A model generated the notes under the pieces. It made no database searches. It was not told the origin of the DNA and saw only the letters and a program-made list of their open reading frames with translations. Source: a virus (lineage: Duplodnaviria > Heunggongvirae > Uroviricota > Caudoviricetes). From it: a stretch of 64,000 bases of DNA. The stretch's first letter is position 1; the number at the start of each line of letters is the position of its first letter. Positions 3,658-61,499 of the stretch are shown in pieces. Made by a program: the position numbers and the translations under genes. The stretch spans positions 492 through 64,491 of IMG/VR virus record IMGVR_UViG_3300024287_000004; one strand, given 5' to 3'.

Positions 3658-3664
3658 TGTTTCA

Positions 3665-5622: not shown

Positions 5623-5637
5623 AAGGAAAGAAAAACA

Positions 5638-6495: not shown

Positions 6496-6503
6496 GGAAG
6501 GAT

Positions 6504-7574: not shown

Positions 7575-7583
7575 AGGAGTTGA

Positions 7584-7982: not shown

Positions 7983-8017
7983 ATAAGAAGTTAAATTAAT
8001 AAGAAAGAGACAAAATA

Positions 8018-8635: not shown

Positions 8636-8681
8636 CAAACCTGCCACTAACGGGGCAGTTAACAACAATAAGGAAGCATCA

Positions 8682-9975: not shown

Positions 9976-9977
9976 AT

Positions 9978-10523: not shown

Positions 10524-10528
10524 GCGAT

Positions 10529-11074: not shown

Positions 11075-11095
11075 TCTCGCGTCATGGTAGTGTTT

Positions 11096-11125
11096 GCCCC
11101 CAGCCTTTCGGTTGGGGGCTTTTTT
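11096..11125 (+). terminator. Strong rho-independent terminator at convergence of + and - gene blocks
   Basis: gcccccagcc-tttc-ggttgggggc 10-bp stem then tttttt 11120-11125. Confidence 0.75.
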
Positions 11126-11126
11126 A

Positions 11127-11324
11127 TTACTCGCCTTTCTTACGGCGAGCAGGCTTCAACACTTCCGTTGACCCGAAAACGTCTCCTGCTTCCAGCTTAA
11201 CCGCTGGCGTAGCCGTCCCAATCTGGGCCTCTGCCATCACAAACAACTCCCGCATAACCTCCACCGGGAGAGTTGCGTAGTGGTTGTAGTGCGCCTCGTA
11301 GTTTTTCAGTTCTTCAAGAGTCAT
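11127..11324 (-). CDS. Hypothetical protein, 65 aa
   Basis: ORF with ATGA-type coupling to 11324..11656. Confidence 0.4.
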   Translation of the reverse strand: MTLEELKNYEAHYNHYATLPVEVMRELFVMAEAQIGTATPAVKLEAGDVFGSTEVLKPARRKKGE

Positions 11325-41471: not shown

Positions 41472-43121
41472 CTAGTAACCTTCTTGGCTATCTTCCATCA
41501 GTTGAACCTCCCACGTATCCGGGTTTAGCATAAAAGTATCACAAACACCTAGCCAAGAGTGAGTACGATTCTTCAAAACTACGATCCTTACCCGGCCACG
41601 GCTCCTATCTGGCATAATTTCGTTTTCCAATCCGAGGATCGTCCACGAAAGTTGTTCCAATGCAGCAGAACCGCGCATATGGCTCTTGTCTACCTTTGTC
41701 CAGTAGGCGTTTTCGTCTGCATCCTTGGGCGGCTTATTATCCCCGAAGGCACTCCGGTTAATATGGCTAATAGCGATGATGCCTACGTCATTAGATGCAC
41801 AGAACGCGGCAAGCTCAGTCATTGTATGGTCGAGAATCTTCCGCTCGTCTACGTCTGTTCCAGACCCCGATGCGATTAGCGTAAGGTGGTCCACAATGAT
41901 GTAGTCGCACTTCTCTACCAAGTGCATATGCTTAATCTTGCTCATAAACTCTGACACCGGCAAATTGCCGAAGTGGTCTAGAAACACGGCCAAGCCCTCA
42001 TTCACAATCTCGTCGTAGGCCGCTTTGATATCCTCCTTACTGGCCGTAGATAGTGGGTTAGCTTTGAACTTAGTGTAATTTACTTTTAGCTTATGAGCCA
42101 CCATACGCTGCAAAGTTTGCACCTTAGTTTCTTCTAGAAAAATCAGCCCGACCTTCTTCTTTGCTTTAATCATATCGGCTGCAAAGATCGAAGTAATGCT
42201 AGTTTTGCCTGTTCCAGAGCCGCTGCACAACAGGACAAGCTCACGTTTTCGGAAGGACTTAATTTTAGCCATCAGCTTCGGAAAGCTTGGGACTACAACA
42301 CCTTCCTCCGGGACCGCAATCAACTCCTCGAAGCTGATTTCGCTCGCCTTCATAATCTTCTCAGCCGAGTAGGGACGCTTGCCAAACTGCACCAGCTTAG
42401 CTAGCTCACCCGCTTGGCCTGCTTGCATCATATCTGAGGCGTCTTTGTGGCCGTCAGGGGTCGTCGTTACGAACAACGTGAGCGACGAACCCACCAGAGC
42501 GTTAGCAACGGCTTCCCGTGCCTCGTGGCCCCGCATGATGTTCTTCTGCTTCTCAGCCGGGGTGCAGTAGTCGTCATCAAAGAAGATGTTCAGCGAGTCG
42601 AAAGACTGTACAAACCCCTCGTTATGAAGAATGGATTCTACAGCGTTAGCGGTTCCCATAGGAATGCTGACAACAAACGGCTCCATGCCTTCGAACTTGG
42701 TTCCTTTGACGCTATCCACCACAGCCTGATAGGAGCTAAGAGCATCCCATTCGCCCTCGGTGGCAGTGAGTACAGCCCGTTTGCGATTAACCTTCTCAGC
42801 CTGCTCTTGACCGAACAGTTTATTGGTAATGACAACACTACCAACTGTTGACCAATGATACCGCTCTGCTTTATCCTTTGTTAAATCTTGTTTCTTGTAG
42901 CCAGTGATTTTGCCTTTCTGATTGTAGGATGGGAAGTAGACAGCCTCGATAGTCTGCCCATCTGCTTCGCTAAGGGCTACACGAACACCGAACTTTTGGC
43001 ATGTTTCCTTTGTAATCCCACGCTGGGGAATGTCCCTGAACGGGTACTTCTCAACTTCTTTAACTGTCTCCTTTGGAGTGTATTCTTCTTTCACTGCTTT
43101 GTATCCTTTTTCGTAAGACAT
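41472..43121 (-). CDS. Primase-helicase (T7 gp4-like: TOPRIM-type primase domain + DnaB-like hexameric helicase); no N-terminal zinc ribbon
   Basis: Walker A LLCSGSGTGKTSITS in C-terminal half, helicase motifs; N-terminal half primase-like; no Cys4. Confidence 0.75.
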   Translation of the reverse strand: MSYEKGYKAVKEEYTPKETVKEVEKYPFRDIPQRGITKETCQKFGVRVALSEADGQTIEAVYFPSYNQKGKITGYKKQDLTKDKAERYHWSTVGSVVITNKLFGQEQAEKVNRKRAVLTATEGEWDALSSYQAVVDSVKGTKFEGMEPFVVSIPMGTANAVESILHNEGFVQSFDSLNIFFDDDYCTPAEKQKNIMRGHEAREAVANALVGSSLTLFVTTTPDGHKDASDMMQAGQAGELAKLVQFGKRPYSAEKIMKASEISFEELIAVPEEGVVVPSFPKLMAKIKSFRKRELVLLCSGSGTGKTSITSIFAADMIKAKKKVGLIFLEETKVQTLQRMVAHKLKVNYTKFKANPLSTASKEDIKAAYDEIVNEGLAVFLDHFGNLPVSEFMSKIKHMHLVEKCDYIIVDHLTLIASGSGTDVDERKILDHTMTELAAFCASNDVGIIAISHINRSAFGDNKPPKDADENAYWTKVDKSHMRGSAALEQLSWTILGLENEIMPDRSRGRVRIVVLKNRTHSWLGVCDTFMLNPDTWEVQLMEDSQEGY

Positions 43122-49905: not shown

Positions 49906-49979
49906 TCCGGCGAGTGGATTTTGAATTTGAAATTTTAGAATTTTCTGGAAAATGTACCGAAAATTTTCGCTTCTTCTTA
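49906..49979. repeat. AT-rich repeat element copy A (gaaattt/gaatttt units ... accgaaaattttcgcttcttctta); copy B at 55271-55322
   Basis: ~80% identity between 49935-49979 and 55278-55322; internal short direct repeats. Confidence 0.7.
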
Positions 49980-49984
49980 TACGC

Positions 49985-50121: not shown

Positions 50122-50576
50122 CGAGAAAAGCGTTGGACAATAGAACCCCGCTAGCGCGCAGGCACTATGAGACGGATAATACTGGGCTTACCCGGACATG
50201 TCAACTCCGAGTGTTAGATAGTAGCTCGCTAGTGTGGGGAGTTTGCAACACGAAAAGCGTTTCGCCATAGGACGGCGTTCTCTGGACTCTTAGAGGATGC
50301 GGCTGATCGCCTGTTTCGTAGGCTCTTGCCGCTGACGCTTAGCCAGTGAGACGATTATCCGTCAAAACTCTAGACGGGTCAAGAACTATTTTGAACGGTG
50401 GAAAATACGCAACAATGCCCACATAAGAGCCTGTTAAATTTAACAGTAGGACCATTCCGACAAAGACTAGGCACAGTCCTACAGCCTCCAAGTGGGAGCT
50501 AACCCATTGATTCCAAATACCTAACCTGTTTAAGTCAGAAAACCCGCTTTTTGTCAAACTTTTTAGTGAACAACCC

Positions 50577-50605
50577 TTGACTGTTACAGACGCCGGTACT
50601 ACTAT
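50577..50605 (+). promoter_or_regulatory. Sigma70-like rightward early promoter (TTGACT-17-TACTAT)
   Basis: ttgact 50577-50582; tactat 50600-50605; gene starts 50664 with RBS aaggagag. Confidence 0.5.
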
Positions 50606-50663
50606 GCATCCTGTCGTATTCGACAACCTGCCCAACTAGGGCTAAAACCAAGGAGAGATAAAC

Positions 50664-51536
50664 ATGCAAACCACCGCTTACGTTGGCCCCACAGAAATTC
50701 TGTGCCGCTATGACTACAATCTCAACAAGCCGGTTGTCTTCATTGCTCATTCGATGGGTAACGGGCAAATCCAAGTGTGGGACGGCAACGAAACCAAATT
50801 CGTGCCACTTCACGAATACCAGCGCACGGCCCCGCTGGCGAAAGCTGACGAGGATGTGTTAGCAAAACGCTTTGCAAAGCAAACAGGAGATAAAAGCGTG
50901 GTTGTGCGTCAACGCCTTCCGCGTACCCCTCGCACTCGTCCTGAGCGTTTGGCTATTACCAACACCGGCCCCGTCCCGGTTCCGGCTAAGGCCCAGCAGC
51001 AACAAAGCAGTCAGGACGTTCCGGCCCCGGCAGCAAGCCCGGCTGTTGAGGTTCCTACCACCACCGATCCCAGCGATGTTATCCTTGGCAAGATCAAGGA
51101 AGAAAGCGCCAAGGTTGCTATGTTGTCGGCGCAGGTGGCTGAATTCTCGCAAAAGCTGCAACAGGCCACCAGCGATCACGATGCGGCGCAACGTACCTAC
51201 ACCATCCTGACGGCACAGTATCAAGCTGCCTGTGAGCGTGAGGCGCAAGAAGAACTCCAGAAGCGGCAGCAAATGCTTGCCGAAGCTGTAGCCCCGCTGG
51301 GAGCACTTAAACAAGACTTCCCGCAAGGCCAGCAACAGCAGCAACAGACCCCCGAGGCATCCAGCCCCTCTGGTAAAAACGGGGTTCCGCGTGGGGCTGG
51401 CGGCAAGTTCCAGAAGAAAGCAGCAGGCAGTCCCCCGGCTGAACCCGATGCAGCGCTGACCGCCTTTAAGCAACTCTCCCCGGCACAGAGGGACGCCGCA
51501 TTAAAAGCCGCAGGGCTCGCCACCGGCCCCGCATAA
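50664..51536 (+). CDS. Early protein, 290 aa, Gln/Ala/Pro-rich low-complexity with coiled coil
   Basis: RBS aaggagag; ORF. Confidence 0.5.
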   Translation: MQTTAYVGPTEILCRYDYNLNKPVVFIAHSMGNGQIQVWDGNETKFVPLHEYQRTAPLAKADEDVLAKRFAKQTGDKSVVVRQRLPRTPRTRPERLAITNTGPVPVPAKAQQQQSSQDVPAPAASPAVEVPTTTDPSDVILGKIKEESAKVAMLSAQVAEFSQKLQQATSDHDAAQRTYTILTAQYQAACEREAQEELQKRQQMLAEAVAPLGALKQDFPQGQQQQQQTPEASSPSGKNGVPRGAGGKFQKKAAGSPPAEPDAALTAFKQLSPAQRDAALKAAGLATGPA

Positions 51537-51561
51537 AAACAACGGGCAGTTAAAAAATCGC

Positions 51562-51590
51562 TTGCAGGTAGTTAGCTAGGTATGTAAGAA
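51562..51590 (+). promoter_or_regulatory. Sigma70-like promoter (TTGCAG-17-TAAGAA)
   Basis: ttgcag 51562-51567. Confidence 0.35.
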
Positions 51591-51650
51591 TTGTCTTACT
51601 GCGCGGAGAGCAGCGCAGGCATACCAAACCTAACTACCTGAAAGTGATAT

Positions 51651-51890
51651 ATGAATGTTGCTAATCACCCCGCAGTAAACGCAGTGCTGGCAATCATGTA
51701 CAAACTGCTTCCCCGCAAAGTCAATGGCTATTGGACCGTTACGCTTTCCTCGGATGAGAGCAACGTCCAATATCGCTCTCTCAACAAGGCCAATGCACAA
51801 GATTGGCTCAACGACAACCAGTCCCACGACGACTTGAACGCTCAGGCAGGCGTGAGCGTGTGGCGCGCACGCTCCCCGGAGGCCGCATAA
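51651..51890 (+). CDS. Early hypothetical protein, 79 aa
   Basis: ORF. Confidence 0.4.
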   Translation: MNVANHPAVNAVLAIMYKLLPRKVNGYWTVTLSSDESNVQYRSLNKANAQDWLNDNQSHDDLNAQAGVSVWRARSPEAA

Positions 51891-52004
51891 TGCCCCGTCC
51901 CTACACTCCACGCGATTACGCAGCAGAACAGGTCCAGCGGCTAGCAATGTACCGGGCCTTCCGAGAAGCGAAAGCGGCAATTCTGCAACAGAACAAATAA
52001 AAGC

Positions 52005-52033
52005 TTGCACAAATCAAAAAACGTCTGTAAGAT
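52005..52033 (+). promoter_or_regulatory. Early promoter, conserved family (AAAGCTTGCACAAAtcAAAAA ... TAAGAT)
   Basis: ttgcac 52005-52010, 17-bp spacer, taagat 52028-52033. Confidence 0.55.
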
Positions 52034-52070
52034 AGCAAACACTAACAACCAAACCTTAGAGGGCTACAAT

Positions 52071-52562
52071 ATGAACACCACCGAATACAAAGGCTTTAAC
52101 ATCACCGAAAACAATGGCCGTCTCTTTGTGAGTGCTTGCGGCGGTTATCCGCACGATAGCTTTAACCCGGACGGCTATGCCACCATGAACAACGCCAAGG
52201 GCGCTATCACTAAGCACTTGAAAGCGGTAGAAGAACGCCACAATGCCTTCTGCGACGATGTAGCGGGAATGGCGAAGGAAGACAAAGACGCCCCCACCCC
52301 GAAAGAGCAAATCAGCCGCGCATTGGCCTCGGAAGTAAAGGCCGCCCGCAAGAACAAACCCGCTACCAACGACAAGGCAGACAAGGCTAGCGATGCGGCA
52401 GCGCACCCGCTTGAAGTAGCAACCGGGATGCCGTTTGCTGATAAAATTGCGGATATCGTAAACCTCCACAGCCGTAACAAGCGGGAAGGCCGCTATGCTG
52501 GTAAGAGCCGGGGTAGCCATAGCCGCGCCCGTTGCAACCACCTCAAGAACATCAACGCATAA
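52071..52562 (+). CDS. Early hypothetical protein, ~164 aa
   Basis: MNTTEYKGFNITENNG with RBS agaggg; internal start of track ORF 52005..52562. Confidence 0.45.
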   Translation: MNTTEYKGFNITENNGRLFVSACGGYPHDSFNPDGYATMNNAKGAITKHLKAVEERHNAFCDDVAGMAKEDKDAPTPKEQISRALASEVKAARKNKPATNDKADKASDAAAHPLEVATGMPFADKIADIVNLHSRNKREGRYAGKSRGSHSRARCNHLKNINA

Positions 52563-52816
52563 CCACAAGCGGGGCCTTAGTAGCACCGCCTTCCTGATAG
52601 AGACGAAAGGAACCAGATTCATGTGCCACAGCAACGAAACGTTTGTTCGCTCCCGTAAGCCTGCGCACCGCCGTGAGGCTCGCCCGGAACAGCCCCAGCA
52701 GCAACGCCGGAAAGCTGCCCCGGCTGGCAAAGCATGGCAGCGCACGGACAAGCGCGCTATGCTCGCTGACCACTACGCAGAAGCCTACTAGGTAATGTGG
52801 TTAACTAGCAACACAC

Positions 52817-52850
52817 CCCGCACCCCTGTAAAAAGGGGTGCGGGTATTAT
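52817..52850 (+). terminator. Rho-independent terminator
   Basis: ccgcacccct-gtaaaa-aggggtgcgg stem then T-rich tattattgtttgtgtt. Confidence 0.6.
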
Positions 52851-53112
52851 TGTTTGTGTTGTGGAATATTATTCATCGGTGGCGTTGTGCTGCCGAGATA
52901 ACTAAGAGCGGAGCTAACTATGACCTACGCAGTAGTAGATACCCAAACCAACACCGTAGCCAAGGACGCCGGGGGCAACGGCCATATCTACAGCACCAAG
53001 ACCCAAGCCCAACAGGTTTGCGAGGAATTGAACAAAGCCGGGGATGCAACAGCCCCGGCTGGCATGGAGTGCAGTCGGTTTACGGTCAAGCCGTGGTAAA
53101 CAATAATAAAGC

Positions 53113-53141
53113 TTGACACAAGCAAAAAGCCCCTGTAATAT
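53113..53141 (+). promoter_or_regulatory. Early promoter, conserved family (AAAGCTTGACACAAGCAAAAAG ... TAATAT)
   Basis: ttgaca 53113-53118; taatat 53136-53141. Confidence 0.6.
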
Positions 53142-53176
53142 GGGGCCTTCCTTAACCACCAAGCGAGCTAAGCATC

Positions 53177-53728
53177 ATGGAAAACAACACCAACACCCCG
53201 GCCCCTGCGATGAAAGACCCGTTCTTTGTCGTCAATCGCGGCCCTGCTGACTTCGTTATTATCGACCAAGCTATCTGGGACGGGGAAAAATACCGGGGCA
53301 AGTACAGCGGCGAAACGCTGGAACAGATTCGTGAGCGTATGGAACTCTTGTACGTGAACGGTGTTACCGACTACGAAACCCGGTGGAAAGCCAATGCCAA
53401 CGCAGAGCTTATGGAGTGGGAGCAAGCATCTGCAATGCTTGACGCTGCCCAGCGTGCTAAATACGTAGGCCCGGTTAAGGAGATTACCAAAGACCGCTTT
53501 TGGTATCTGCTGGAAGTGTTGCCCCCTGTAGGCTGGAAGCGGGGCGAAGGTTCGGAAAGCTTTAAAATGTCAGAACGCCTTACCGGCAGCATCACCACCA
53601 TTGCCGCTCGCATCGGGGAGAAATACTATGAATTTAACGACAACATTACCATGTCGCATGATGCTGTGATCGAGAAAATCCAGCAGGCAATCAAAGACGG
53701 CTCACTGATCCCTAAGGAACCCGGCTAA
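53177..53728 (+). CDS. Early hypothetical protein, 183 aa
   Basis: ORF. Confidence 0.5.
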   Translation: MENNTNTPAPAMKDPFFVVNRGPADFVIIDQAIWDGEKYRGKYSGETLEQIRERMELLYVNGVTDYETRWKANANAELMEWEQASAMLDAAQRAKYVGPVKEITKDRFWYLLEVLPPVGWKRGEGSESFKMSERLTGSITTIAARIGEKYYEFNDNITMSHDAVIEKIQQAIKDGSLIPKEPG

Positions 53729-53738
53729 AACAAACGAA

Positions 53739-53765
53739 AAGGCCCCTAGCGGGCCTTTTCTGTCT
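53739..53765 (+). terminator. Rho-independent terminator
   Basis: aaaggcccc-tagc-gggccttttc. Confidence 0.55.
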
Positions 53766-53845
53766 CTGGTCAATACCCCGATAGCCCCGGAGGATTAAAA
53801 CGTCTCTGGGGCCTTTTTATTGAATCCTATTGATCGGAGTAAATA

Positions 53846-54058
53846 ATGAGCAAACCGCTAGATTATGTCCAAACCCTGCATGAAATGTGCGGGTCACTAG
53901 GGGAACTGATAGAAATGAATGAGCACTACTTGATGACTTGGGAGGACGCCGGGTTAATCAGCATCACCGACACAGCAGAGCTAGAGCTAAGGCTACAGCG
54001 CCGCCAGCATGAGGCCCTGTCCTTCGCCTTACAACAACTTGCCACTGTAGCAGCCTAA
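53846..54058 (+). CDS. Early hypothetical protein, 70 aa
   Basis: RBS ggag; ORF. Confidence 0.45.
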   Translation: MSKPLDYVQTLHEMCGSLGELIEMNEHYLMTWEDAGLISITDTAELELRLQRRQHEALSFALQQLATVAA

Positions 54059-54080
54059 CCACACACCACAGAGGCCCCAG

Positions 54081-54120
54081 AAGCGCGTGCGTTAATAAAC
54101 GCTTGCGCTTTTTTATTTTT
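54081..54120 (+). terminator. Rho-independent terminator (overlaps next promoter)
   Basis: aagcgc...gcgctt stem then ttttattttt. Confidence 0.5.
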
Positions 54121-54131
54121 GTGTGTAATAT
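54103..54131 (+). promoter_or_regulatory. Early promoter, conserved family (ACGCTTGCGC ... TAATAT)
   Basis: ttgcgc 54103-54108; taatat 54126-54131. Confidence 0.5.
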
Positions 54132-54158
54132 GGGCTTATTCAAACAACGGAGGCCAGA

Positions 54159-54314
54159 ATGAGCGCAAACATCGGATGGAACGTCTACCTTAACGGGAAG
54201 AAAATTGACACAGTGTATTTCACGCCCGGCTGTGATGCAGAATATGTGCGTAAGTCCCTCATCAACCATGACGGCTACAACGCCGATATCGTAGTTAAGA
54301 TGGTGAAAAAATGA
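54159..54314 (+). CDS. Early small protein, 51 aa
   Basis: RBS ggaggcc; ATGA overlap with next gene; not in ORF track (<60 aa). Confidence 0.4.
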   Translation: MSANIGWNVYLNGKKIDTVYFTPGCDAEYVRKSLINHDGYNADIVVKMVKK

Positions 54315-54505
54315 AAGCAAACGGCTTCGTAACGGTCGAAATTGCACGGCCTAACAAGAACAGCGTGTCCCGGCTACCGTGCTACGTGGCAGTCGATAAA
54401 ATTTACACCCTGACCCGTGCTTATTGCCGTGAAAGCCTGCAACAGCTAAGCGGCATTCATGGCGAGAACAAAGCCCGAATTCTTTCCTACGAACTGAACG
54501 GATAA
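54311..54505 (+). CDS. Early hypothetical protein, 64 aa
   Basis: ORF. Confidence 0.4.
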   Translation: MKANGFVTVEIARPNKNSVSRLPCYVAVDKIYTLTRAYCRESLQQLSGIHGENKARILSYELNG

Positions 54506-54510
54506 CAGCT

Positions 54511-54870
54511 ATGGCACGCAAACTAATCACAGCAGCAGACGGGCTTGCAGCCCGCATTTTCCACCCTGACGGCAAAGGGCTACGGGGCGTCACCCTATTG
54601 ATGCCTAGCGGCGTGCGTGGCCTGTCCCTGAGCGTGGCTGTCCACGACGAGAAAGGCAAGCGCAAGGCGATGAATTGCCTGTCCCTCAAAGGGCAGGATT
54701 TCAGCCTGCAATGGGAACGGGCTATTTTGCAGATTGCCGACTACTACCGCATCCTACCGAGTGACCCCCTGTACAAACAAATGCTGGAGGCGAAAGAGCA
54801 GTTTTTGACCCGCTACGGCATGACGCTGGAAACGCAGACAATCACGTTCCAACAGGCGCAACTGGCCTAA
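54511..54870 (+). CDS. Early hypothetical protein, 119 aa
   Basis: ORF. Confidence 0.45.
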   Translation: MARKLITAADGLAARIFHPDGKGLRGVTLLMPSGVRGLSLSVAVHDEKGKRKAMNCLSLKGQDFSLQWERAILQIADYYRILPSDPLYKQMLEAKEQFLTRYGMTLETQTITFQQAQLA

Positions 54871-54896
54871 ATAATACGCCACCAAGAGAACGACAA

Positions 54897-55247
54897 ATGT
54901 ATAAAAAAGTAGTGATGAATTCGGGCCGAGTTGTCAATGCGCCTGTTAAGCTTAGAACGGTTTATATGTTCCAAGGCGAGATTGTCAAGACCAACCGAGG
55001 AACAAGTTTGGAGGAAGCGGCAATCAATATCGAGAGGCATGTGCAACGGAATTCCTACGGGGCGACATACGTTGAAGTGCTGGACGCCGACACGGAACAG
55101 CTTTACTATTCCGCGAAGATTAAACGCGTCACCGAAAAGGGGAAATTCATTCTTAAAAAAGATGGTATTTACGAATGGAACCCCGAGGACACGGAAAGAA
55201 AATATGGCGTATCTGCCCTATTTGCGAAAGGGAAGAACGGGAAATAA
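54897..55247 (+). CDS. Early hypothetical protein, 116 aa
   Basis: ORF. Confidence 0.45.
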   Translation: MYKKVVMNSGRVVNAPVKLRTVYMFQGEIVKTNRGTSLEEAAINIERHVQRNSYGATYVEVLDADTEQLYYSAKIKRVTEKGKFILKKDGIYEWNPEDTERKYGVSALFAKGKNGK

Positions 55248-55248
55248 A

Positions 55249-55275
55249 AAGGAGGGGCCGTAGGCCCCTTTTCAA
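55249..55275 (+). terminator. Rho-independent terminator
   Basis: ggaggggcc-gta-ggcccctttt. Confidence 0.6.
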
Positions 55276-55322
55276 ATTTGGAATTTTCCGTGAAATACAC
55301 CGAAAAATTTCCATTCTTCTTA
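55271..55322. repeat. AT-rich repeat element copy B (see 49906-49979)
   Basis: caaatttggaattttccgtgaaatacaccgaaaaatttccattcttctta. Confidence 0.7.
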
Positions 55323-55345
55323 GGAGCATCCAAGCCTTATGCGAG

Positions 55346-55494
55346 ATATCCACACCTGAAAACCGACTTATCCACAGAAAAGTTGTCAAAAAGCAGCAAA
55401 TTGTGGATAACTTGAGCTTTGCCTGTGGATAACAGTCCTTAGCGTTGTACAGGCGCAACACATCGTTGCTGCCGTAGCAACAACTTGTGGATAA
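55346..55494. repeat. DnaA-box cluster 1: five 9-mers (atatccaca 55346; TTATCCACA 55368; TGTGGATAA 55402, 55424, 55486)
   Basis: Four perfect matches to DnaA box consensus TTATCCACA in 150 bp, both orientations. Confidence 0.75.
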
Positions 55495-55727
55495 CTGTAC
55501 GTCTCGGCCAAGCGACGGCTAGCCAGCCTAGCCAAGAGGCTAGACAGCCAAAGGAGGGGCCTTTTACAGCCCTACCGTACGCTAGCACACTACGCCACGG
55601 AACGCAAGCACGAGAACAAGTTAAATAGTGCTTGTGCTTATTGCGGCATGGTGCTAACATGGCGGTTCCTTAACACCGTAAAACAACATGACCCAGAACG
55701 AGTGGAAGCAAGCCAATAGAAATAAAC

Positions 55728-55760
55728 ACAAGCCCCTTGCGGGGCTTGTGTTTTCTTGTG
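55728..55760 (+). terminator. Rho-independent terminator
   Basis: aagcccc-ttgc-ggggctt then gtgttttcttg. Confidence 0.5.
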
Positions 55761-55808
55761 TATGGGTTTATTATTCGTCCTGTCACTAACTCACTAGGGA
55801 ACCGAATC

Positions 55809-56000
55809 ATGGCAATCAAACTTACCCCGCGTCAAATCTCCATCGGCTACTTCGGCAAGGTGGCGCAAGAGTGGCAAGCCAAGTGGGGCCGTCCTGCCGC
55901 TGAACGCATGATTTTGGAAGCTTGCGAATATACCGAGTGCCTCAAGATCAGCGACCGCTTTACAATCTGGGAAGTAGCGGATGGCAAGCGCGTTGCTTAA
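55809..56000 (+). CDS. Early small protein, 63 aa (between DnaA-box clusters)
   Basis: MAIKLTPRQ... with RBS aggga; internal start of track ORF 55737..56000. Confidence 0.4.
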   Translation: MAIKLTPRQISIGYFGKVAQEWQAKWGRPAAERMILEACEYTECLKISDRFTIWEVADGKRVA

Positions 56001-56023
56001 CCAAACAGCCCAGCCACCAAAAC

Positions 56024-56050
56024 AAGGCCCGTAAGGGCCTTTTCTTTTAC
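56024..56050 (+). terminator. Rho-independent terminator
   Basis: aaggccc-gtaa-gggcct then tttcttttac. Confidence 0.6.
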
Positions 56051-56095
56051 CTATCTTCATTCCTTCCTAGCAACATTCCTACCTGTTTTACTAGG

Positions 56096-56248
56096 TTGTC
56101 CACACGAACGCAGTGAGTTATCCACATGCCCCTAAAACGCGTCAAAACGCGCTAGGAGGCGCGTAGAGCTTGGTTGGACACTCGCTATCAACTCGACCCT
56201 GCGCGTCTCCTAGGCCCCTTATAATCGCTCCTAGACCCATGTGGATAA
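56096..56248. repeat. DnaA-box cluster 2 (ttgtccaca 56096; TTATCCACA 56118; TGTGGATAA 56240)
   Basis: Two perfect and one 1-mismatch DnaA boxes. Confidence 0.7.
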
Positions 56249-56429
56249 CTCAAAAACCTGTTGATAAGCTGTGTATAAGGAAGAATTCACACTTGTAACA
56301 CAGCGTTTTTACACAACTTGCAACCACTCATATAGATGAAAGTCGGCAAACAAAGCGGCAAGGAACGGGCCGTTAGACGCCAAAACATCAATAAAATCAA
56401 GCACTTGAGTCTTATAGCAGACCGGCAAA

Positions 56430-56490
56430 ATATCATCTATATGAATTCATCTGTATTACCTGTCTAACATAAGACATATCATCTATATGA
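56430..56490. repeat. 15-bp direct repeat atatcatctatatga x2 (56430-56444, 56476-56490) in AT-rich DNA
   Basis: Exact 15/15 identity, 46-bp spacing. Confidence 0.7.
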
Positions 56491-56619
56491 CCACTAGGAA
56501 TTGCAACATTTAAAAAGCTGGCACGATTCCTGCTACGCGTACGCGCAACGCGTGTGGCTGTGGACAAGAGGCCATTTATACACAAAGCTACCCACATACA
56601 ACACAGAGCAAATAAACAC

Positions 56620-56648
56620 TTGCACAAACAAAAAATATGGTGTACAGT
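56620..56648 (+). promoter_or_regulatory. Early promoter, conserved family (ACTTGCACAAACAAAAAA ... TACAGT)
   Basis: ttgcac 56620-56625; tacagt 56643-56648. Confidence 0.5.
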
Positions 56649-56697
56649 GTTGTTCATGGGCAGCGCATGGGGCGCGGCGATAGATGACAAGGAGTAG

Positions 56698-56934
56698 ATG
56701 ATGAACAAAACCGAACAAGCTACGATCCGCAACATTGTCGCTCGGTTGAAAAAGCCTAATTGCGGCTGCGCAAATAGCATAGGCACCGAACAAATCGTCG
56801 CAGCCGCCAACGAAAAAGGCATCGAGGCCGTGTCCCGGTTGTACCTCGACACTTGGGTTATTCCTGCGCTCGAACTGCTGTTGTCGGGCGAACGTCATAA
56901 CGTCGAATTGGCACGCGACTTGTCCGCCGCCTAA
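56698..56934 (+). CDS. Early hypothetical protein, 78 aa
   Basis: RBS aaggag; followed by repeat gccgcctaacaccaaccacag. Confidence 0.45.
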   Translation: MMNKTEQATIRNIVARLKKPNCGCANSIGTEQIVAAANEKGIEAVSRLYLDTWVIPALELLLSGERHNVELARDLSAA

Positions 56935-56961
56935 CACCAACCACAGATGACAAAGGGGTAG

Positions 56962-57153
56962 ATGATGATTTCGAATCAAGCTTACGCGGAGGCAGTCGCT
57001 GTGCAACAAGAAACTGCTGCGCGCGCCGACGCATATCGCACTGCACTTGTGGGCGCGCTCGAATTGATTGAGCTGCTGCGCAAGAACTGTTCCGACCGCG
57101 TGACCGTCAGCGATGAGCAGATTGCTGCACTTCGTGCCCCGCTCGCCGCCTAA
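56962..57153 (+). CDS. Early hypothetical protein, 63 aa
   Basis: RBS aaagggg; same 3' flank repeat as previous gene. Confidence 0.45.
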   Translation: MMISNQAYAEAVAVQQETAARADAYRTALVGALELIELLRKNCSDRVTVSDEQIAALRAPLAA

Positions 57154-57176
57154 CACCAACCACAGGAAGGAAAACC

Positions 57177-57401
57177 ATGTTTGCATACCACCTGAGCAAA
57201 ACCGGGAAACCGGGCGGCAAGCCCCAATGCGGGCGCGGAACCACTACCACTAGCGGCCTGTCGGTTTCGGCTGAACAGTTTGCCAAATCCGAAGACCGTT
57301 GCGGGCATTGCGCTAGAACGACGCTGGGCAAGGCCGCAATTGCCAAGTACAGCCCGAAGGCAGAGGCTAGCCCGTGCAAGTGTGGGCGATGCGTCAGCTA
57401 A
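57177..57401 (+). CDS. Early hypothetical protein, 74 aa (Cys-containing)
   Basis: RBS aggaagga. Confidence 0.45.
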   Translation: MFAYHLSKTGKPGGKPQCGRGTTTTSGLSVSAEQFAKSEDRCGHCARTTLGKAAIAKYSPKAEASPCKCGRCVS

Positions 57402-57475
57402 AAACAGTGCTGATTAGCCAATGCCTAGCGTGTCTAGGCATTCCCTAACCCACTGACAACAAACGAAAGGTTATC

Positions 57476-57817
57476 ATGCTGCGCTCTGAATACATGAATC
57501 ACCCTTGCCACCTCGTTAGCAGCACGCCAGAGGAACGCGCCAAAGTTCATCGCCAATATTACAGCCAGTTTGTCAACACTGCCACCATCGCCTGTGTCGT
57601 GTCTTACATCGGGGCCGATGCCTTGAAAGCCTCGACGGACCCGCACCTTAACGACATTCCGCTTAAACGCTGGGACACTGTAGCGCAGGCGTCCTTACCC
57701 GTGGCTGTGTCGTTTAAATCCGTTGGCGACTACGCCACCCTTAGCGGTTTGGTGTGCGTGGCTAAAGAGGCTGCGCGGCAATGGTTGGAAGCACAAGCAA
57801 ACAAGGACGGGGAGTAA
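57476..57817 (+). CDS. Early hypothetical protein, 113 aa
   Basis: RBS aaagg. Confidence 0.45.
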   Translation: MLRSEYMNHPCHLVSSTPEERAKVHRQYYSQFVNTATIACVVSYIGADALKASTDPHLNDIPLKRWDTVAQASLPVAVSFKSVGDYATLSGLVCVAKEAARQWLEAQANKDGE

Positions 57818-57825
57818 GTTCGACA

Positions 57826-58154
57826 TGAGCCAGCTTAAGAAAATCAACCCGAACGATTACGCCCGTATTGCTATCCTGCTGGATTGCTTCGGCCATGACA
57901 CCAACGGCAACCCTATAGCACAGCATACCGTGTTTGCTTATGCCGACGCATCACAGGCCCTTAGCAGCCCCACGGCAGAGCTTTACAAGACCCGCAGACG
58001 GCAGCAAATCGGGGCAGGCACCAACCGTGACGACTGGGCACCTAGTGCCATGCGCTATGCTGGATTGCCCTACACGCTGCCCCTTACACGCACCGAAGGC
58101 AGCAGGGCAGAGGGCGCAATGTGGCTTGTGTACGATTTGCAACAAGAAAAATAA
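57826..58154 (+). CDS. Early hypothetical protein, ~109 aa
   Basis: MSQLKKINPNDY... with RBS ggggag; internal start of track ORF 57723..58154. Confidence 0.4.
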
Positions 58155-58158
58155 AAGC

Positions 58159-58187
58159 TTGCATAAGCTAAATGAGCCTGCTAATAT
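58159..58187 (+). promoter_or_regulatory. Early promoter, conserved family (AAAGCTTGCATAAGCTAAAT ... TAATAT)
   Basis: ttgcat 58159-58164; taatat 58182-58187. Confidence 0.55.
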
Positions 58188-58218
58188 AGAGGCTCATTAA
58201 CGCATTGGAGGCAGCAAA

Positions 58219-58557
58219 ATGGATGCACGTATTGGTCAACTGACCCGCGACGGTAAGGCAGTTTTCTACAAGAACGAGGGCGGTTATGTGGAAGGCACCT
58301 TAGAGCGAGTGGAAGCCGCTTTGGGCCTGCGTGCTGCCCCTGTAGCAGCGACCCCGGTTGTTGAAAGCAAAACCTACAATGTGCGCCTCACGTTCCAGTT
58401 TCCGGCATGGGACGAGAAAGACGGCATCCCGTACAACGGCATCACCGCAGGCAGCAAACAAGAGGCTAACGCCATTGCTCGCAGGCTGGCTCACAATGAC
58501 GGCCACCTCAACGGAGGACAGGGCCGCGTTACCTTCACCGCTACGGAAGTGCAATAA
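58219..58557 (+). CDS. Early hypothetical protein, 112 aa
   Basis: RBS ggagg. Confidence 0.5.
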   Translation: MDARIGQLTRDGKAVFYKNEGGYVEGTLERVEAALGLRAAPVAATPVVESKTYNVRLTFQFPAWDEKDGIPYNGITAGSKQEANAIARRLAHNDGHLNGGQGRVTFTATEVQ

Positions 58558-58561
58558 ACGC

Positions 58562-58589
58562 TTGCACAAACCAAAAAGGGGCCTATACT
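58562..58589 (+). promoter_or_regulatory. Early promoter, conserved family (ACGCTTGCACAAACCAAAAAG ... TATACT)
   Basis: ttgcac 58562-58567; tatact 58584-58589. Confidence 0.5.
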
Positions 58590-58620
58590 CAAGGCTCCTT
58601 AACTGATTTACCTACCACCC

Positions 58621-58779
58621 ATGACTACCATCTACATCACCCAGACCGAGGCAGGCTACGAGCTGGAAGACAGCAACGAGGTTCCGCAAGGCACAGCGGA
58701 AACGTTGGATCAGGCTATTGAATCCGCTAGACAGTTCGTCGAACTGGGGTTGGCTGATGCGTGGGTAATCAACGAATAA
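58621..58779 (+). CDS. Early small acidic protein, 52 aa
   Basis: MTTIYITQTEAGYELEDSNE...; not in ORF track. Confidence 0.35.
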   Translation: MTTIYITQTEAGYELEDSNEVPQGTAETLDQAIESARQFVELGLADAWVINE

Positions 58780-58798
58780 CTTGACAGGAGCAGCCACC

Positions 58799-59020
58799 AT
58801 GCCCGGACTCTACGAAAAAACCGTCACTGCCATCTTTGGCGGTAAGAACAAAACCAACAGCCAGAACCGCACGGAATGCGAACAAGCGCGTGCGATAGCA
58901 CGCACACTGGGCCACTACACAGCCGCTCGCTACCTTGCTCTGCGTGGCTGGACGCTCGACGGGGCGCTGTATGTCCTGCTCGGCACGGAACAGAAACACG
59001 AACAGCTTGCGGGGGCCTAA
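58799..59020 (+). CDS. Early hypothetical protein, ~73 aa
   Basis: MPGLYEKTV... with RBS aggag; internal start of track ORF 58781..59020. Confidence 0.4.
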   Translation: MPGLYEKTVTAIFGGKNKTNSQNRTECEQARAIARTLGHYTAARYLALRGWTLDGALYVLLGTEQKHEQLAGA

Positions 59021-59021
59021 C

Positions 59022-59252
59022 ATGAAGTCCTTTCACACTTGGTACAACGGCAAGAAATACCGGGTTGATCTTGACGATCAAACAGGTGAAATCATCGGCT
59101 GCGCCGTCGAAGTGTTTGCGCGTGGCAAGCGCGCAACAGAGCGTAAGCTGTGGCGTAAAGATGAACCAAAGCCAATGCCTCAGACGGTGAGGGACGTTAT
59201 GAACATGCCTTCTACGAACGATGCAATTGCACGCTGGATGAGGCGGGAATAA
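59022..59252 (+). CDS. Early hypothetical protein, ~76 aa
   Basis: MKSFHTWYNGKKY...; internal start of track ORF 58935..59252. Confidence 0.4.
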   Translation: MKSFHTWYNGKKYRVDLDDQTGEIIGCAVEVFARGKRATERKLWRKDEPKPMPQTVRDVMNMPSTNDAIARWMRRE

Positions 59253-59374
59253 CCCATTCCAGCAACACAAACATCCCCTCCGGGGCTTTTGTTGTTTGTT
59301 ACAAATTAGTTCTTGCGCTACCTGTTTGGCTGTGTAATAATCACCTACATCAACTAACCAACTAGGAACCTACC

Positions 59375-59590
59375 ATGACCACCTACTTTAAACACGGCAT
59401 AACCAACATCACCGACCTTTTCCCGTACATGCGCGTTCGTAGGGCTCTAACTTCCTTGCCCCAGCCACGGACTCCTGAGGTGAACGCTATGATTGACGAG
59501 GTTGACAGGAAGGTTGCGGCTTTCTGCGCACGGAAGGGCATTTACGAACATACAGCGTGGGCAGAGTATGACAGACAACCAAGCAAGTGA
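59375..59590 (+). CDS. Early hypothetical protein, 71 aa
   Basis: RBS aggaa. Confidence 0.45.
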   Translation: MTTYFKHGITNITDLFPYMRVRRALTSLPQPRTPEVNAMIDEVDRKVAAFCARKGIYEHTAWAEYDRQPSK

Positions 59591-59632
59591 GCAAAGGCCC
59601 AGCGAGGGACTCTAAACATAGGCAGGGTAAAT

Positions 59633-59869
59633 ATGAGACAACGTTTTCCAATCGGTTTGATCTTTGCTAAGAAACGATTTCCTAAAGCAAAAGAAACAAC
59701 GGCCTATCAGATTGACGATGTGTACACCACACGCAACAATGCCGGTGTTATCGTTAGCATAGAATACGTTGTTTCACATGAGTTCATGGGGCAGCGTATT
59801 CAAGAACGGATGGTGGATACAACCATCGCTCGCAGCCTGAGCAATGAACAGTTGAAGCAATACGCCTAA
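59633..59869 (+). CDS. Early hypothetical protein, 78 aa
   Basis: ORF. Confidence 0.45.
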   Translation: MRQRFPIGLIFAKKRFPKAKETTAYQIDDVYTTRNNAGVIVSIEYVVSHEFMGQRIQERMVDTTIARSLSNEQLKQYA

Positions 59870-59874
59870 TCGGT

Positions 59875-59905
59875 AGGCCCCGTGAGGGGCCATTGTAGTT
59901 TGTTT
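59875..59905 (+). terminator. Rho-independent terminator
   Basis: aggcccc-gtga-ggggcc then attgtagtttgtttg. Confidence 0.45.
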
Positions 59906-59916
59906 GCAATAAGTGC

Positions 59917-59945
59917 TTGCACAAGCTAAAAAGCTGTGGCATAGT
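59917..59945 (+). promoter_or_regulatory. Early promoter, conserved family (GTGCTTGCACAAGCTAAAAAG ... CATAGT)
   Basis: ttgcac 59917-59922; catagt 59940-59945. Confidence 0.5.
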
Positions 59946-60022
59946 GGACTAGGAAAGCGTTGCAGCGATTGAAGCGGCAAGCGTAGACGCAACACAGGCC
60001 CCGTAAGGGGCCTTGTTGTTTT
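59946..60022 (+). ncRNA. Candidate ~75-nt small RNA (promoter-to-terminator unit without ORF)
   Basis: Promoter 59917-59945 followed 50 nt later by terminator caggcccc-gtaa-ggggcct-tgttgttttt (59995-60022); no ORF with RBS. Confidence 0.3.
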
Positions 60023-60044
60023 TACGCACCTGTGAAATAAAAAC

Positions 60045-60073
60045 TTGCACAAGCTAAACGTATGTGAAATAAT
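60045..60073 (+). promoter_or_regulatory. Early promoter, conserved family (AACTTGCACAAGCTAAAC ... AATAAT)
   Basis: ttgcac 60045-60050; aataat 60068-60073. Confidence 0.5.
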
Positions 60074-60106
60074 GTCTTCATTGGATCAACAAACATAGGG
60101 CAGAAA

Positions 60107-60355
60107 ATGAAAGCTTACGAGGCAAAGAAAGAGGGAGTGGGCCAACGCGGTATTATCCAAATGTCCATAAAAGGCAAGGCTGAGGAAGTGCGCAAGGTGG
60201 AAGCCATCCTCAACACTAACGACCTGTTCACTAACGACCTGTGTGACGATGAAGACGAAGATGGAACCCTAGAAATCGGCTACTACGTGGACCGCAACGA
60301 CAAGGCCGAATTCATGGCAGCATACAAGGCAGCTAAGGCAGCTATAGCTAAATAA
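60107..60355 (+). CDS. Early hypothetical acidic protein, 82 aa
   Basis: RBS aggg; ORF. Confidence 0.5.
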   Translation: MKAYEAKKEGVGQRGIIQMSIKGKAEEVRKVEAILNTNDLFTNDLCDDEDEDGTLEIGYYVDRNDKAEFMAAYKAAKAAIAK

Positions 60356-60361: not shown

Positions 60362-60392
60362 ACAGGCCCCGCAAGGGGCCTTTTCTTTTGCC
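60362..60392 (+). terminator. Rho-independent terminator ending the rightward early block
   Basis: caggcccc-gcaa-ggggcc then ttttcttttg. Confidence 0.65.
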
Positions 60393-60429
60393 CTGTCAAG
60401 GGCCAGCTTCCCCGGCTAGTGTTTCACGT

Positions 60430-60800
60430 GGAACATAGGTAGATAACATAGGTAGCACTACATAGGTTATACTACTTAGTTATTACTTTAAAAATAACTA
60501 CTTTATAATACTACTTAATATCCCCTCACTCGCCTAGCGGCTCGTTCGGGGTGGATGGTAGCATACAAACCCTAAAAAGTCAATACTCAAAAGAACAACT
60601 TAGAATGATTACTCTAAAATAATAAAATAGAAATACTAAGAAATAGATAAAAAAGCAAAATAAAGAGTGTGCTACATAGGAGCTTTGCTTTCGTAGGGCA
60701 ACTACATGCTGGTGCATGTCCATTCCTACATAGACTCCTATGCTATAGGCCCTAATAGCCATAGGAAAGCGTAACAACCCATATAGTACTACATAAGCTA
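60430..60800. repeat. Iteron-like repeats of (a)ACATAGG(t) / CTACATAG flanking an AT-rich core (60540-60665)
   Basis: acataggtag at 60433 and 60446, acataggtta 60460, ctacatagg 60673, ctacatag 60724, ccatagg ~60760, ctacataag ~60790; tactt(t/a) repeats 60470-60520. Confidence 0.55.
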
Positions 60801-61004
60801 CCCTCTCTGTGTGTGGGGCCTAGCCTACAGGCAGGGCAGGGGCAGGCGGGAGGCTGGCCCGATGTTTTCCCCCTAGTGTGTGGGACAGGGGCAGATAGTG
60901 CGGTTTGCAAGGAACAACGTAGTTGTTTAGCCAAACCGGGCGACTCTTCTTAGAGTTGTTCCAGAGTTATGGAACAGGCCCGGCCAAGGCCAGCCAAACT
61001 CGTT

Positions 61005-61366
61005 CCAAACGCGAATGATTCTCATTCCACCCCATCCCTACCCCAGCCAAGCCCCCTGTCCCTACAGGACAGGGTAGGCCATAGCCCCTGCCACAGAGGG
61101 AGAAAGCCCCTCCAGACAGGCCCCTACGGGGTGGCGTCAAAACCCTAGATGTCCGTGTAGTGTTTTGACCGAAGCGATTAGAGGGCTTTAGAGACGTTTT
61201 CTCTGTTTTGGCTACCCTCTATCGTCCTGATGTGTGATCGCGTCTCCTATGGCCTATACGCAAGCCCTAGACCCATTCCTGAGCCATGCCGAGGCCACCC
61301 CTTCCCCAGCCTGATATTTTTGAATGAGAATGAGAATGATTCGCATTCGCGTTTGGGCCGTTAAGC
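61005..61366. repeat. 13-bp perfect inverted repeat CCAAACGCGAATG (61005-61017) / CATTCGCGTTTGG (61354-61366) flanking ~336 bp; adjacent inner direct repeats caccccatccctaccccagcc / caccccttccccagcc; tandem gaatga x3
   Basis: Read directly from sequence; extended imperfect IR ~21-33 bp. Confidence 0.7.
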
Positions 61367-61499
61367 AGCCCACTCGCTCCCCCGTGTTTTACAAATAGCT
61401 AAATATGCAACACCTGATATTATAATTTTAGTATTTATGCAACGAGGTAGCTACGAACGTTGGGTGTAATTTTTTTTTTAATTTTTAATCCTACAAACA

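Follow-up and report, generated by a model that had tools for sequence, protein, structure and literature searches.

Two DnaA-box arrays conserved at early operon boundaries in an uncultured relative of Felix-O1-like phages

The 64,000-nucleotide stretch analysed here (IMG/VR virus record IMGVR_UViG_3300024287_000004, positions 492 to 64,491) is referred to as the window, and positions are counted along it unless another sequence is named. It belongs to a phage whose early region carries two arrays of DnaA boxes, the 9-mer binding sites of the host replication initiator DnaA. Small rightward genes form a block of 9.7 kb there (50664-60355), in which the arrays occupy two unusually long non-coding gaps, gap 1 (55248-55808) and gap 2 (56001-56697). 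The gaps flank an open reading frame (ORF) of 63 amino acids, which was noticed in the initial annotation and is also called as a gene in the source assembly.

All six perfect boxes of the window (TTATCCACA/TGTGGATAA) fall within 55368-56248. Six further boxes with one mismatch occur in the same stretch, giving 12 boxes in 1.24 kb (55346-56584), where about 0.25 would be expected; about 12 would be expected by chance in the entire 64 kb. In 100 shuffles of the window the mean number of perfect boxes was 0.40 and the maximum 3, so that none reached 6. With the Schaper-Messer consensus TTWTNCACA, nine of the ten matches in the window fall in the array region, and the GTTATCCACA context of the Escherichia coli oriC boxes R1 and R4 is present at five of the six perfect boxes. 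The source contig (ENA ERZ27256725, k141_973345; 90,368 bp) ends about 17 kb and about 9 kb beyond the window; 78.8 kb of it was rebuilt from the window and two flanking loci, leaving out record positions 1-11179 and 89951-90368, and contains no further perfect box. The initial annotation had described two box clusters at a density far above chance, and these counts bear it out. Every perfect and near-match box that it listed is present, but the list comprises 8 of the 12 boxes and is incomplete for cluster 2, with those at 56259, 56270, 56559 and 56576 missed.

The arrangement of the boxes is regular. Measured from start to start, the boxes of cluster 1 read (+ + - - -) at intervals of 22, 34, 22 and 62 bp, and those of cluster 2 read (+ + - - -) at intervals of 22, 122, 19 and 11 bp. 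The opposed boxes are separated by 25 bp in cluster 1 and by 113 bp in cluster 2. Both gaps have a terminator hairpin at their start and an early promoter at their end, degenerate in gap 1. This promoter belongs to a family (AATAAAnnCTTGCACAAnCnAAAAA-N-TAnAnT) whose copies, at 52004, 56619, 58561, 59916 and 60044, are all on the (+) strand. Its consensus is (A/C)AATAAAnnCTTGCACAAnCnAAAAA with TAnAnT 17 bp after TTGCAC, and one member stands ahead of each early transcription unit. Since each gap runs from terminator through array to early promoter, each array lies at a boundary between two early transcription units.

The arrays are conserved in a second phage. The product of the last gene before gap 1 (116 amino acids) has a 65% identical homologue on JGI contig Ga0247690_1000235, and the phage that carries it, hereafter the sister phage, is also found on a 20-kb contig in the European Nucleotide Archive (ENA), designated L014, from the same sample as the window. 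The sister phage has 11 boxes, six of them perfect, at the same two places. Directly after the homologue of the 116-amino-acid gene its boxes read (+ + + - - -), and in its second gap (+ + - -) with one more box. The sister phage shares with the window phage the 22-23-bp spacing of the left pairs, the facing sense of the boxes, the tandem pair at 11 bp and the isolated downstream box. In the common layout, a rightward pair with a spacing of 22-23 bp faces two or three leftward boxes that are spaced by 22 or 11 bp. In both phages each array lies downstream of a terminator and upstream of a member of the early promoter family, found in L014 at about 3511 and 7330. The features of the region are collected in Table 1.

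Table 1. Features of the array region and the two replication genes named in the text, with window positions
Feature	Position	Strand	Remarks
Pol A-type polymerase gene	34418-36862		
T7 gp4-like primase-helicase gene	41472-43121		
Last gene of the first early operon, 116 amino acids	54897-55247		
Terminator hairpin T1	55253-55269		Bidirectional; closes the first early operon
Inverted repeat TGGAATTTTCCG...CGAAAAATTTCCA	55279-55313	+	Within the initially annotated AT-rich repeat, 55271-55322
DnaA box ATATCCACA, 1 mismatch	55346-55354	+	Identical in the sister phage
Perfect DnaA box	55368-55376	+	22 bp after the 55346 box
Perfect DnaA box	55402-55410	-	TGTGGATAA on top strand; faces the 55368 box across 25 bp
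Perfect DnaA box	55424-55432	-	22 bp after the 55402 box
Perfect DnaA box	55486-55494	-	TGTGGACAA at the matching place in the sister phage
Degenerate early-promoter-family copy, TTGTGC-N17-TAACAT	55632-55660	+	Putative, from family similarity
Terminator hairpin T2, 13-bp stem	55724-55753		3' end of a sub-threshold sraL-like match
ORF between the arrays, 63 amino acids	55809-56000	+	No family match; no homologue in the sister phage
Terminator hairpin T3, then conserved CT-rich stretch	56024-56041		Start of the conserved gap-2 module
DnaA box TTGTCCACA, 1 mismatch	56096-56104	+	Perfect in the sister phage
Perfect DnaA box	56118-56126	+	22 bp after the 56096 box; same spacing in the sister phage
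Conserved non-box core CCCCTAAAACGCGTCAaAACGCGCTAGG ... GGTTGGACACTCGCTATCAAC	56127-56194		Between the facing arrays; highly conserved, nearly invariant against the sister phage
Perfect DnaA box	56240-56248	-	Exact column not kept in the sister phage
DnaA box TGTTGATAA, 1 mismatch	56259-56267	-	Perfect in the sister phage
DnaA box TGTGTATAA, 1 mismatch	56270-56278	-	11 bp after the 56259 box; tandem pair kept in the sister phage
Motif A, near-palindromic 12-mer TCATATAGATGA, first copy	56328-56339		
Perfect IHF consensus AATCAAGCACTTG	56395-56407	+	One of 3 in the window
Packed palindromes, low-stability DNA	56409-56490		Motif B (GTCTTATAnnAGAC) at 56409 and 56462; motif A at 56433, 56447 (2 mismatches) and 56479
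Sigma54-like -24/-12 element TGGCACGattcCTGCT	56519-56534	+	Sister phage (L014 7238-7253): TGGCACGctatTTGCT, perfect consensus
DnaA box TGTGGACAA, 1 mismatch	56559-56567	-	Perfect in the sister phage, at L014 7278
DnaA box TTATACACA, 1 mismatch	56576-56584	+	35 bp from its end to the -35 of the early promoter
Early promoter, family AATAAAnnCTTGCACAAnCnAAAAA-N-TAnAnT	56609-56648	+	-35 at 56620-25, -10 at 56643-48; drives the operon starting at 56698

The genes around the arrays have not been conserved in the same way. Upstream of cluster 1 the genes of the two phages are homologous (48-65% amino acid identity). Downstream of it no gene is homologous, and the operons after cluster 2 are also unrelated. 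Between its arrays the sister phage has seven unrelated genes (3.6 kb) where the window phage has one ORF (0.75 kb). Amid these unrelated genes, an alignment of the two phages is still possible across one large non-coding block only, gap 2 (56020-56664, 67-82% identity). The arrays have been retained while the gene cargo was exchanged and have therefore been kept by selection. The initial annotation had proposed, among other roles, that the boxes control the small ORF lying between them. This proposal is weakened because the sister phage carries seven unrelated genes in that place. The ORF has no relative in IMG/VR.

The alignment of window 53100-56700 with L014 770-7370 is a mosaic in which the control regions (promoters, terminators and gap 2) are kept and the early genes are replaced. 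The pattern suggests that recombination at shared control sequences exchanged the early genes.

Beyond the sister phage, the arrays are missing from about 30 more distant relatives and are thus specific to one lineage. Neither boxes nor long gaps were found in five relatives of the 116-amino-acid gene at 57-60%, in seven IMG/VR relatives found via the same gene, in seventeen relatives found via the ligase, or in the whole genome of Pseudomonas phage M1, the closest cultured relative read. Megablast and blastn searches with 54800-57000 against 50,697 phage records gave no match in the non-coding part.

The phage itself is an uncultured virulent relative, about 90 kb in size, of the Felix-O1-like phages (Ounavirinae), because its primase-helicase shares 62-64% identity with its counterparts in Pseudaeromonas phage KLEP7 and Pseudomonas phage vB_PsaM_M1, the latter an 89-kb myovirus classed under Ounavirinae. 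The products encoded in the window include a tape-measure protein, a Dda/RecD-like helicase, a ribonucleotide reductase and a nicotinamide phosphoribosyltransferase, together with the polymerase and the primase-helicase (Table 1), both of which the initial annotation had correctly credited to the phage. No phage RNA polymerase was seen among the window proteins. A search of bacterial genomes with the primase-helicase gave no match from which a host could be assigned, a search for tRNA genes found none, and no Rfam family reached its gathering score. Outside the window, a leftward block (L019 3693-4403, about window coordinate 68,170-68,890) encodes a serine recombinase (Resolvase, PF00239) and a protein with an HD_4 domain; in other respects the phage looks strictly virulent, and a recombinase would not be expected in it.

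Binding of the arrays by host DnaA is a sound inference because the boxes occur far above chance and their position, spacing and orientation are conserved in the sister phage. Based on the identity of the 9-mers, their flanks, spacing and conservation, and the recurrence of such arrays across unrelated phages, host DnaA very probably binds here. We consider it highly improbable that the 9-mers are instead the sites of a phage protein which happens to share the DnaA-box sequence, or are neutral repeats with no function. Gap 2 does hold several other repeated motifs with no known partner, and the early proteins have no recognisable domains, as such a view would have it. However, the exact 9-mer with its oriC R1/R4 context, GTTATCCACA(G), recurs in T5-like, T7-like and HMO-2011-type phages as well as in this one, and chance is excluded by the shuffles and by conservation. 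Additionally, Pfam and PHROG revealed no DNA-binding, initiator or DnaA-like domain in 25 proteins of the early region and its neighbourhood, and none of the 35 phage proteins scanned has a DnaA-type DNA-binding domain.

Cluster 2 belongs to a conserved control region of about 700 bp. Its perfect consensus for integration host factor (IHF) is matched, at the aligned place, by the sole IHF consensus in the 13-kb locus of the sister phage. The site stands roughly midway between boxes, 127-157 bp from the tandem boxes and 162-179 bp from those at 56559 and 56576; the corresponding distances in the sister phage are 160-171 and 185 bp. IHF probably binds this site, and a sharp IHF bend could then join both sets of DnaA sites. 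A second perfect IHF consensus (50500-50512) occurs in the 880-bp divergent region that opens the early block, which also contains a strong sigma70-type promoter (50578-50606, TTGACT-N17-TACTAT).

Around the IHF site are two palindromic motifs, A and B, which are of the same kinds and in the same order in both phages (window 56328-56490; L014 6984-7210) and look like operators or iterons. Both motifs are confined to gap 2, and motif A has four copies, with none elsewhere in the window. The palindromes lie in an unstable segment (56382-56515) that ranks fifth in instability among the 80-120-bp stretches of the 78.8 kb. The sigma54-like element that follows is conserved in both halves and variable in its spacer, with the sigma70-type early promoter 100 bp further downstream; the scan of phage proteins turned up no enhancer-binding protein for sigma54. 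Between the end of the box at L014 7278 and the -35 of the gap-2 promoter the sister phage has 34 bp, close to the distance seen in the window phage. The hexamer ACGCGT is enriched about 20-fold in gap 2 of both phages (56137, 56535 and 56548; L014 6801, 6887, 7254 and 7261), within the conserved core and just after the sigma54-like element. An enrichment of CTAG in the gaps was only modest and was dropped. The core between the facing boxes (56127-56194) has no recognisable promoter or hairpin. Exact-pattern scans with it gave no match in IMG/VR or in 185,579 bacterial genomes, and nothing indicates, therefore, that a host origin was the source of the module.

In gap 1 the inverted repeat beyond the first terminator is followed by TTCTTCTTA, and the sister phage keeps the repeat with changed arms (L014 about 3040-3075). 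A related copy is present at 49953-49981, in the divergent promoter region at 49.9 kb. The AT-rich repeat elements that the initial annotation placed beside both clusters are thus real, but they are not simple repeats of the kind found in a DNA unwinding element (DUE), consisting instead of a conserved inverted repeat at cluster 1 and near-palindromic 12-mers at cluster 2. The segment 55604-55754 may be a small RNA. It resembles the Rfam family sraL, an Hfq-binding small RNA, at 28.7 bits against a gathering score of 39 and is not a member; the match rests mainly on terminator T2 and a 5' stem, and T2 is missing from the gap of the sister phage.

The initial annotation had read the two clusters and the AT-rich elements beside them as oriC-like, a DnaA-dependent origin with a DUE. 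With 12 boxes in 1.24 kb, six of them perfect, the region has the box cluster of such an origin, but in other respects this reading does not withstand comparison with oriC. The outer strong boxes of E. coli oriC read R1(-)...R4(+), the inverse of the (+ +)(- -) sense seen in both clusters of both phages. In the 1.45 kb around the arrays there is one GATC, and three two-mismatch boxes against a background of 2.8 per kb, so that weak boxes are not in excess. The flanks of cluster 1 are of average stability, with no unstable DNA adjoining, and at cluster 2 the unstable stretch begins about 100 bp from the nearest strong box. Cumulative GC skew, a weak test for phages, has no inflection at 55-56.6 kb and reaches its minimum near 69,930, about 14 kb away. 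A chromosome-type (oriC-like) origin is not supported.

DnaA also serves the origins of plasmids and prophages, such as P1 oriR, RK2 oriV and that of pSC101. Like oriC and these origins, the phage region combines clustered boxes of the R1/R4 class and an IHF site and has, close by, AT-rich DNA and short repeats. It differs from them in the inverted sense of its boxes and in having no GATC clusters, 13-mers, graded weak sites, adjacent Rep gene, skew signal or similarity to plasmids; a comparison with plasmid origins gave no sequence similarity to the region. Iteron-type origins were considered as well: palindromic 12/14-mers are present, but no Pfam or PHROG replication initiator was found among the neighbouring proteins.

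An origin of another type could be sought in gap 2, serving the T7-type replisome of the phage with help from DnaA and IHF, although we think this unlikely. DnaA, IHF bending and adjacent transcription would open the segment 56382-56515, with cluster 1 in an auxiliary part, and the palindromic 12/14-mers would bind a phage initiator, giving the gp4-like helicase-primase single-stranded DNA on which to load. Boxes, a perfect and conserved IHF site, iteron-like palindromes and one of the least stable stretches of the contig do stand side by side, and conservation is higher in gap 2 than in the surrounding genes, as would befit an essential cis site. The phage has the gp4-like primase-helicase and the Pol A-type polymerase for such a replisome, with no phage RNA polymerase seen. 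In addition, a box cluster heads the operon of gp4-like primase-helicase and Pol A in 11 HMO-2011-type podovirus contigs among the matches listed in the IMG/VR scan described below. Against this stand the points already raised against an oriC-like origin, which apply here also (the orientation of the boxes, the scarcity of GATC and of weak boxes, the distance of unstable DNA from strong boxes at cluster 2 and its absence at cluster 1, the skew, and the lack of any resembling plasmid origin). Furthermore, no conserved run of at least three DnaA-trios, as in a basal unwinding system, is apparent to the eye in the 3' flank of the tandem pair 56259/56270 in either phage, and about 30 relatives with the same replication proteins do without the boxes.

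Two other repeat-rich non-coding gaps are better or equal candidates for an origin. One, at 60390-61495, is a 1.15-kb convergent gap in which the rightward early genes meet leftward genes. It contains about seven copies of (C)TACATAGG (CATAGG repeats), very AT-rich tracts that are among the least stable DNA of the contig, GAGAATGAGAATGATTCGCAT, and inverted repeats at 61005-27/61334-56. Its counterpart in the sister phage (L014 10460-11490) is of the same kind, with CATAGG arrays, and the gap is a candidate origin, packaging site or genome end. Outside the window, at about 69,900-72,500 (L019 78-2100), the skew minimum, the least stable DNA of the contig and a gene-poor stretch of about 1.8 kb coincide; this is another candidate origin or genome end.

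The closest analogue of the arrays is found in the left terminal repeat of phage T5, whose DnaA boxes have reportedly been known since 1987 (Heusterspreute). In the T5 genome, a divergent promoter region contains the boxes at 6121 and 6194 (+), and the boxes at 9437-9510 (-), which fall within the annotated injection stop signal, follow a terminator at a distance of 140 bp. In both phages, consensus or near-consensus boxes sit in long untranslated DNA among small early or pre-early genes of a virulent phage with its own replisome. Both have two clusters, a variable few kb apart, one right after an operon terminator and the other in a promoter region, and in both the arrays are conserved while neighbouring genes vary. 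The T5 boxes are conserved in 25 T5-like phages, and a preprint by Davison has proposed, without experiment, that membrane-bound DnaA halts T5 DNA entry at the injection stop signal (10.1101/866236).

The two systems also differ. T5 pairs are 12 bp apart from start to start, each cluster is of a single sense, (+ +)...3.2 kb...(- - - -), and 3 boxes are perfect, whereas the pairs of the window phage are 22 (or 11) bp apart, with both senses in each cluster and 6 perfect boxes. The boxes of a T5 pair are separated by 3 bp inside the inverted repeats IRC/IRD; here the gaps are of 13 or 2 bp and no long inverted repeats carry the boxes. T5 is a siphovirus (Demerecviridae), another type of phage, and its boxes lie in a 10-kb terminal repeat.

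Box arrays also recur in many other viral sequences. We scanned IMG/VR for two perfect boxes 22 bp apart, with the reversed sequence as a control, and found the pair in at least 120 contigs against 3 for the control. Among the matches listed, to which the next figures also refer, many contigs have 5-11 perfect boxes inside 100-300 bp, at G+C contents of 30-54%. The clusters are mostly intergenic, with divergent junctions as the commonest type of flank (35 of 84 fully flanked loci) and terminase and portal genes as the commonest neighbours, and they lie near a contig end in 17 of 47 whole-contig loci, against 8.2 expected. A BLAST search with one IMG/VR array as query brought up cultured Autographiviridae; a synthetic tandem-box query gave no match in BLAST, probably because it was repeat-masked. 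The 238-bp direct terminal repeat of Klebsiella phage Kp7 (ON148527 1-238) holds 7 boxes and the 177-bp terminal repeat of Shigella phage A7 (NC_048180 1-177) holds 8. No cluster is present in the cultured Roseobacter phage CRP-361, which is related to the box-bearing marine contigs.

The T7-like repeats share with our arrays the same 9-mer, the same flanks (GTTATCCACAG / CTGTGGATAACT), spacings of 11 and 22 bp, and a non-coding location on DNA expected to meet the host cytoplasm first. They differ in that their boxes are all of one sense and are packed in terminal repeats of 177-238 bp beside packaging genes, in podoviruses of 40-46 kb. Arrays of DnaA boxes on terminal or early phage DNA look like a general and little-studied feature, and literature searches on DnaA boxes in Ounavirinae, HMO-2011-type phages or T7-like terminal repeats returned nothing relevant. 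It is possible, and we put it tentatively, that they form a widespread and essentially undescribed class of docking sites for a host factor, spanning the long terminal repeats of T5-like phages, the short ones of T7-like phages, HMO-2011-type marine podoviruses and the early region of the phage studied here. If this is true, host DnaA would in general be a first-contact factor that incoming or early phage DNA meets, with possible roles in protecting its ends, anchoring it to the membrane, ratcheting or pausing its entry, or gating early operons. The window phage would then represent a variant whose arrays had shifted to the boundaries of operons and become associated with IHF.

Known sites of DnaA action outside origins offer other models. 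In E. coli, datA is a locus of DnaA titration and DnaA-ATP hydrolysis, with boxes that flank an IHF site within about 100 bp. The phage region resembles it in having DnaA boxes and IHF outside an origin and differs in its box-to-IHF distances of 120-180 bp. By analogy, and in line with one of the roles suggested in the initial annotation, replicated arrays might act as a sponge that titrates host DnaA, stops host initiation and de-represses DnaA-controlled genes, an explanation to which we give little weight. It would suit the fact that nearly all sites are of the strongest class with no graded weak sites, that the arrays were gained in one sublineage within a hypervariable host-takeover region, and that their placement is free relative to genes and to each other (0.75 against 3.6 kb). 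Arrays of 5-11 perfect boxes are likewise common in viral contigs of many G+C contents, and an IHF site stands alongside, as it is established to do in datA. However, a sponge does not need the conserved 22-bp spacing, the facing orientation or the placement at operon boundaries, and it leaves the location in terminal repeats of T7-like and T5-like phages unexplained. Nor is it obvious what a phage that encodes a polymerase, a helicase-primase and a ribonucleotide reductase would gain from it.

The facing sense of the boxes recalls the DnaA-reactivating sequences (DARS) of E. coli. DARS1, read from the MG1655 genome, is TTATCCACT-N5-TGTGGATAA-N3-TGTGTATTA, with opposed boxes in facing (head-to-head) sense and a third box close in tandem. 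If the phage arrays worked in this way, head-to-head pairs of DnaA would strip ADP, raise ATP-DnaA and drive the host to over-initiate. The (+)(-)(-) sense of DARS1 equals that of the arrays (PMC6868365), and DARS2 too uses an IHF site midway between its binding sites (PMC11724364). DARS are chromosomal and have three boxes, whereas the phage arrays have five to seven. The arrays are not DARS because the head-to-head dimer model requires a gap of 5 bp between the opposed boxes (PMC6868365), a gap that measures 25 and 113 bp here, and a DARS-like action is extremely unlikely.

We favour a reading in which the arrays are boundary or gate elements on early phage DNA, where complexes of DnaA, together with IHF, would insulate or hold the DNA and tune the promoters that follow. 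We put its probability at roughly 35%. Same-sense boxes two helical turns apart, facing opposed boxes, have a geometry that would favour cooperative binding and a bridged DnaA complex. In gap 2, bending by IHF would gather the AT-rich operator cluster and the promoters within a single nucleoprotein complex of DnaA and IHF. By blocking read-through or, as has been proposed for T5, the entry of more DNA, bound DnaA would keep the DNA past the first early operon insulated or on hold. It would also govern how active the next early promoters are, until it is displaced or becomes diluted as phage genomes replicate. The gating step itself is speculative. A partly similar system is that of phage lambda, in which host DnaA tunes an early promoter through a few weak boxes downstream of it, near pR and ori-lambda. 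The likeness lies in a phage using host DnaA near an early promoter, the difference in a few weak boxes against arrays of perfect ones.

Several observations weigh against a gate. The distance from array to next promoter differs between the window phage and the sister phage (136 against about 230 bp for one array, 342 against about 390 bp for the other), which argues against a classical activator or repressor of fixed geometry. Twelve sites, six of them perfect, exceed what ordinary DnaA-regulated promoters have, and a sink or an anchoring site would fit this number equally. Close relatives lack the arrays, so their function is dispensable for this type of phage. The analogy with the terminal arrays of T5-like and T7-like phages is a tentative one for the window phage, and the role of DnaA in the T5 injection stop is itself a proposal (10.1101/866236). 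Finally, the conserved core at 56127-56194, the palindromes and ACGCGT are not explained by DnaA and may be the true functional heart of gap 2.

In summary, we have identified two arrays of DnaA boxes whose geometry was kept while the surrounding genes were swapped, a case that shows selection acting on the arrays. DnaA is the chromosomal initiator of bacteria and a helper of a few temperate phages and plasmids; to our knowledge, its role on the DNA of virulent phages with their own replisome has never been tested. Our survey indicates that such arrays are common, are often terminal and are present in easily cultured Klebsiella and Shigella phages. The question of what host DnaA does to incoming phage DNA hence becomes testable, with experimental models ready at hand. 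The answer would bear on phage DNA entry, on the timing of early genes and host shut-off, and on the design of therapeutic and engineered phages.

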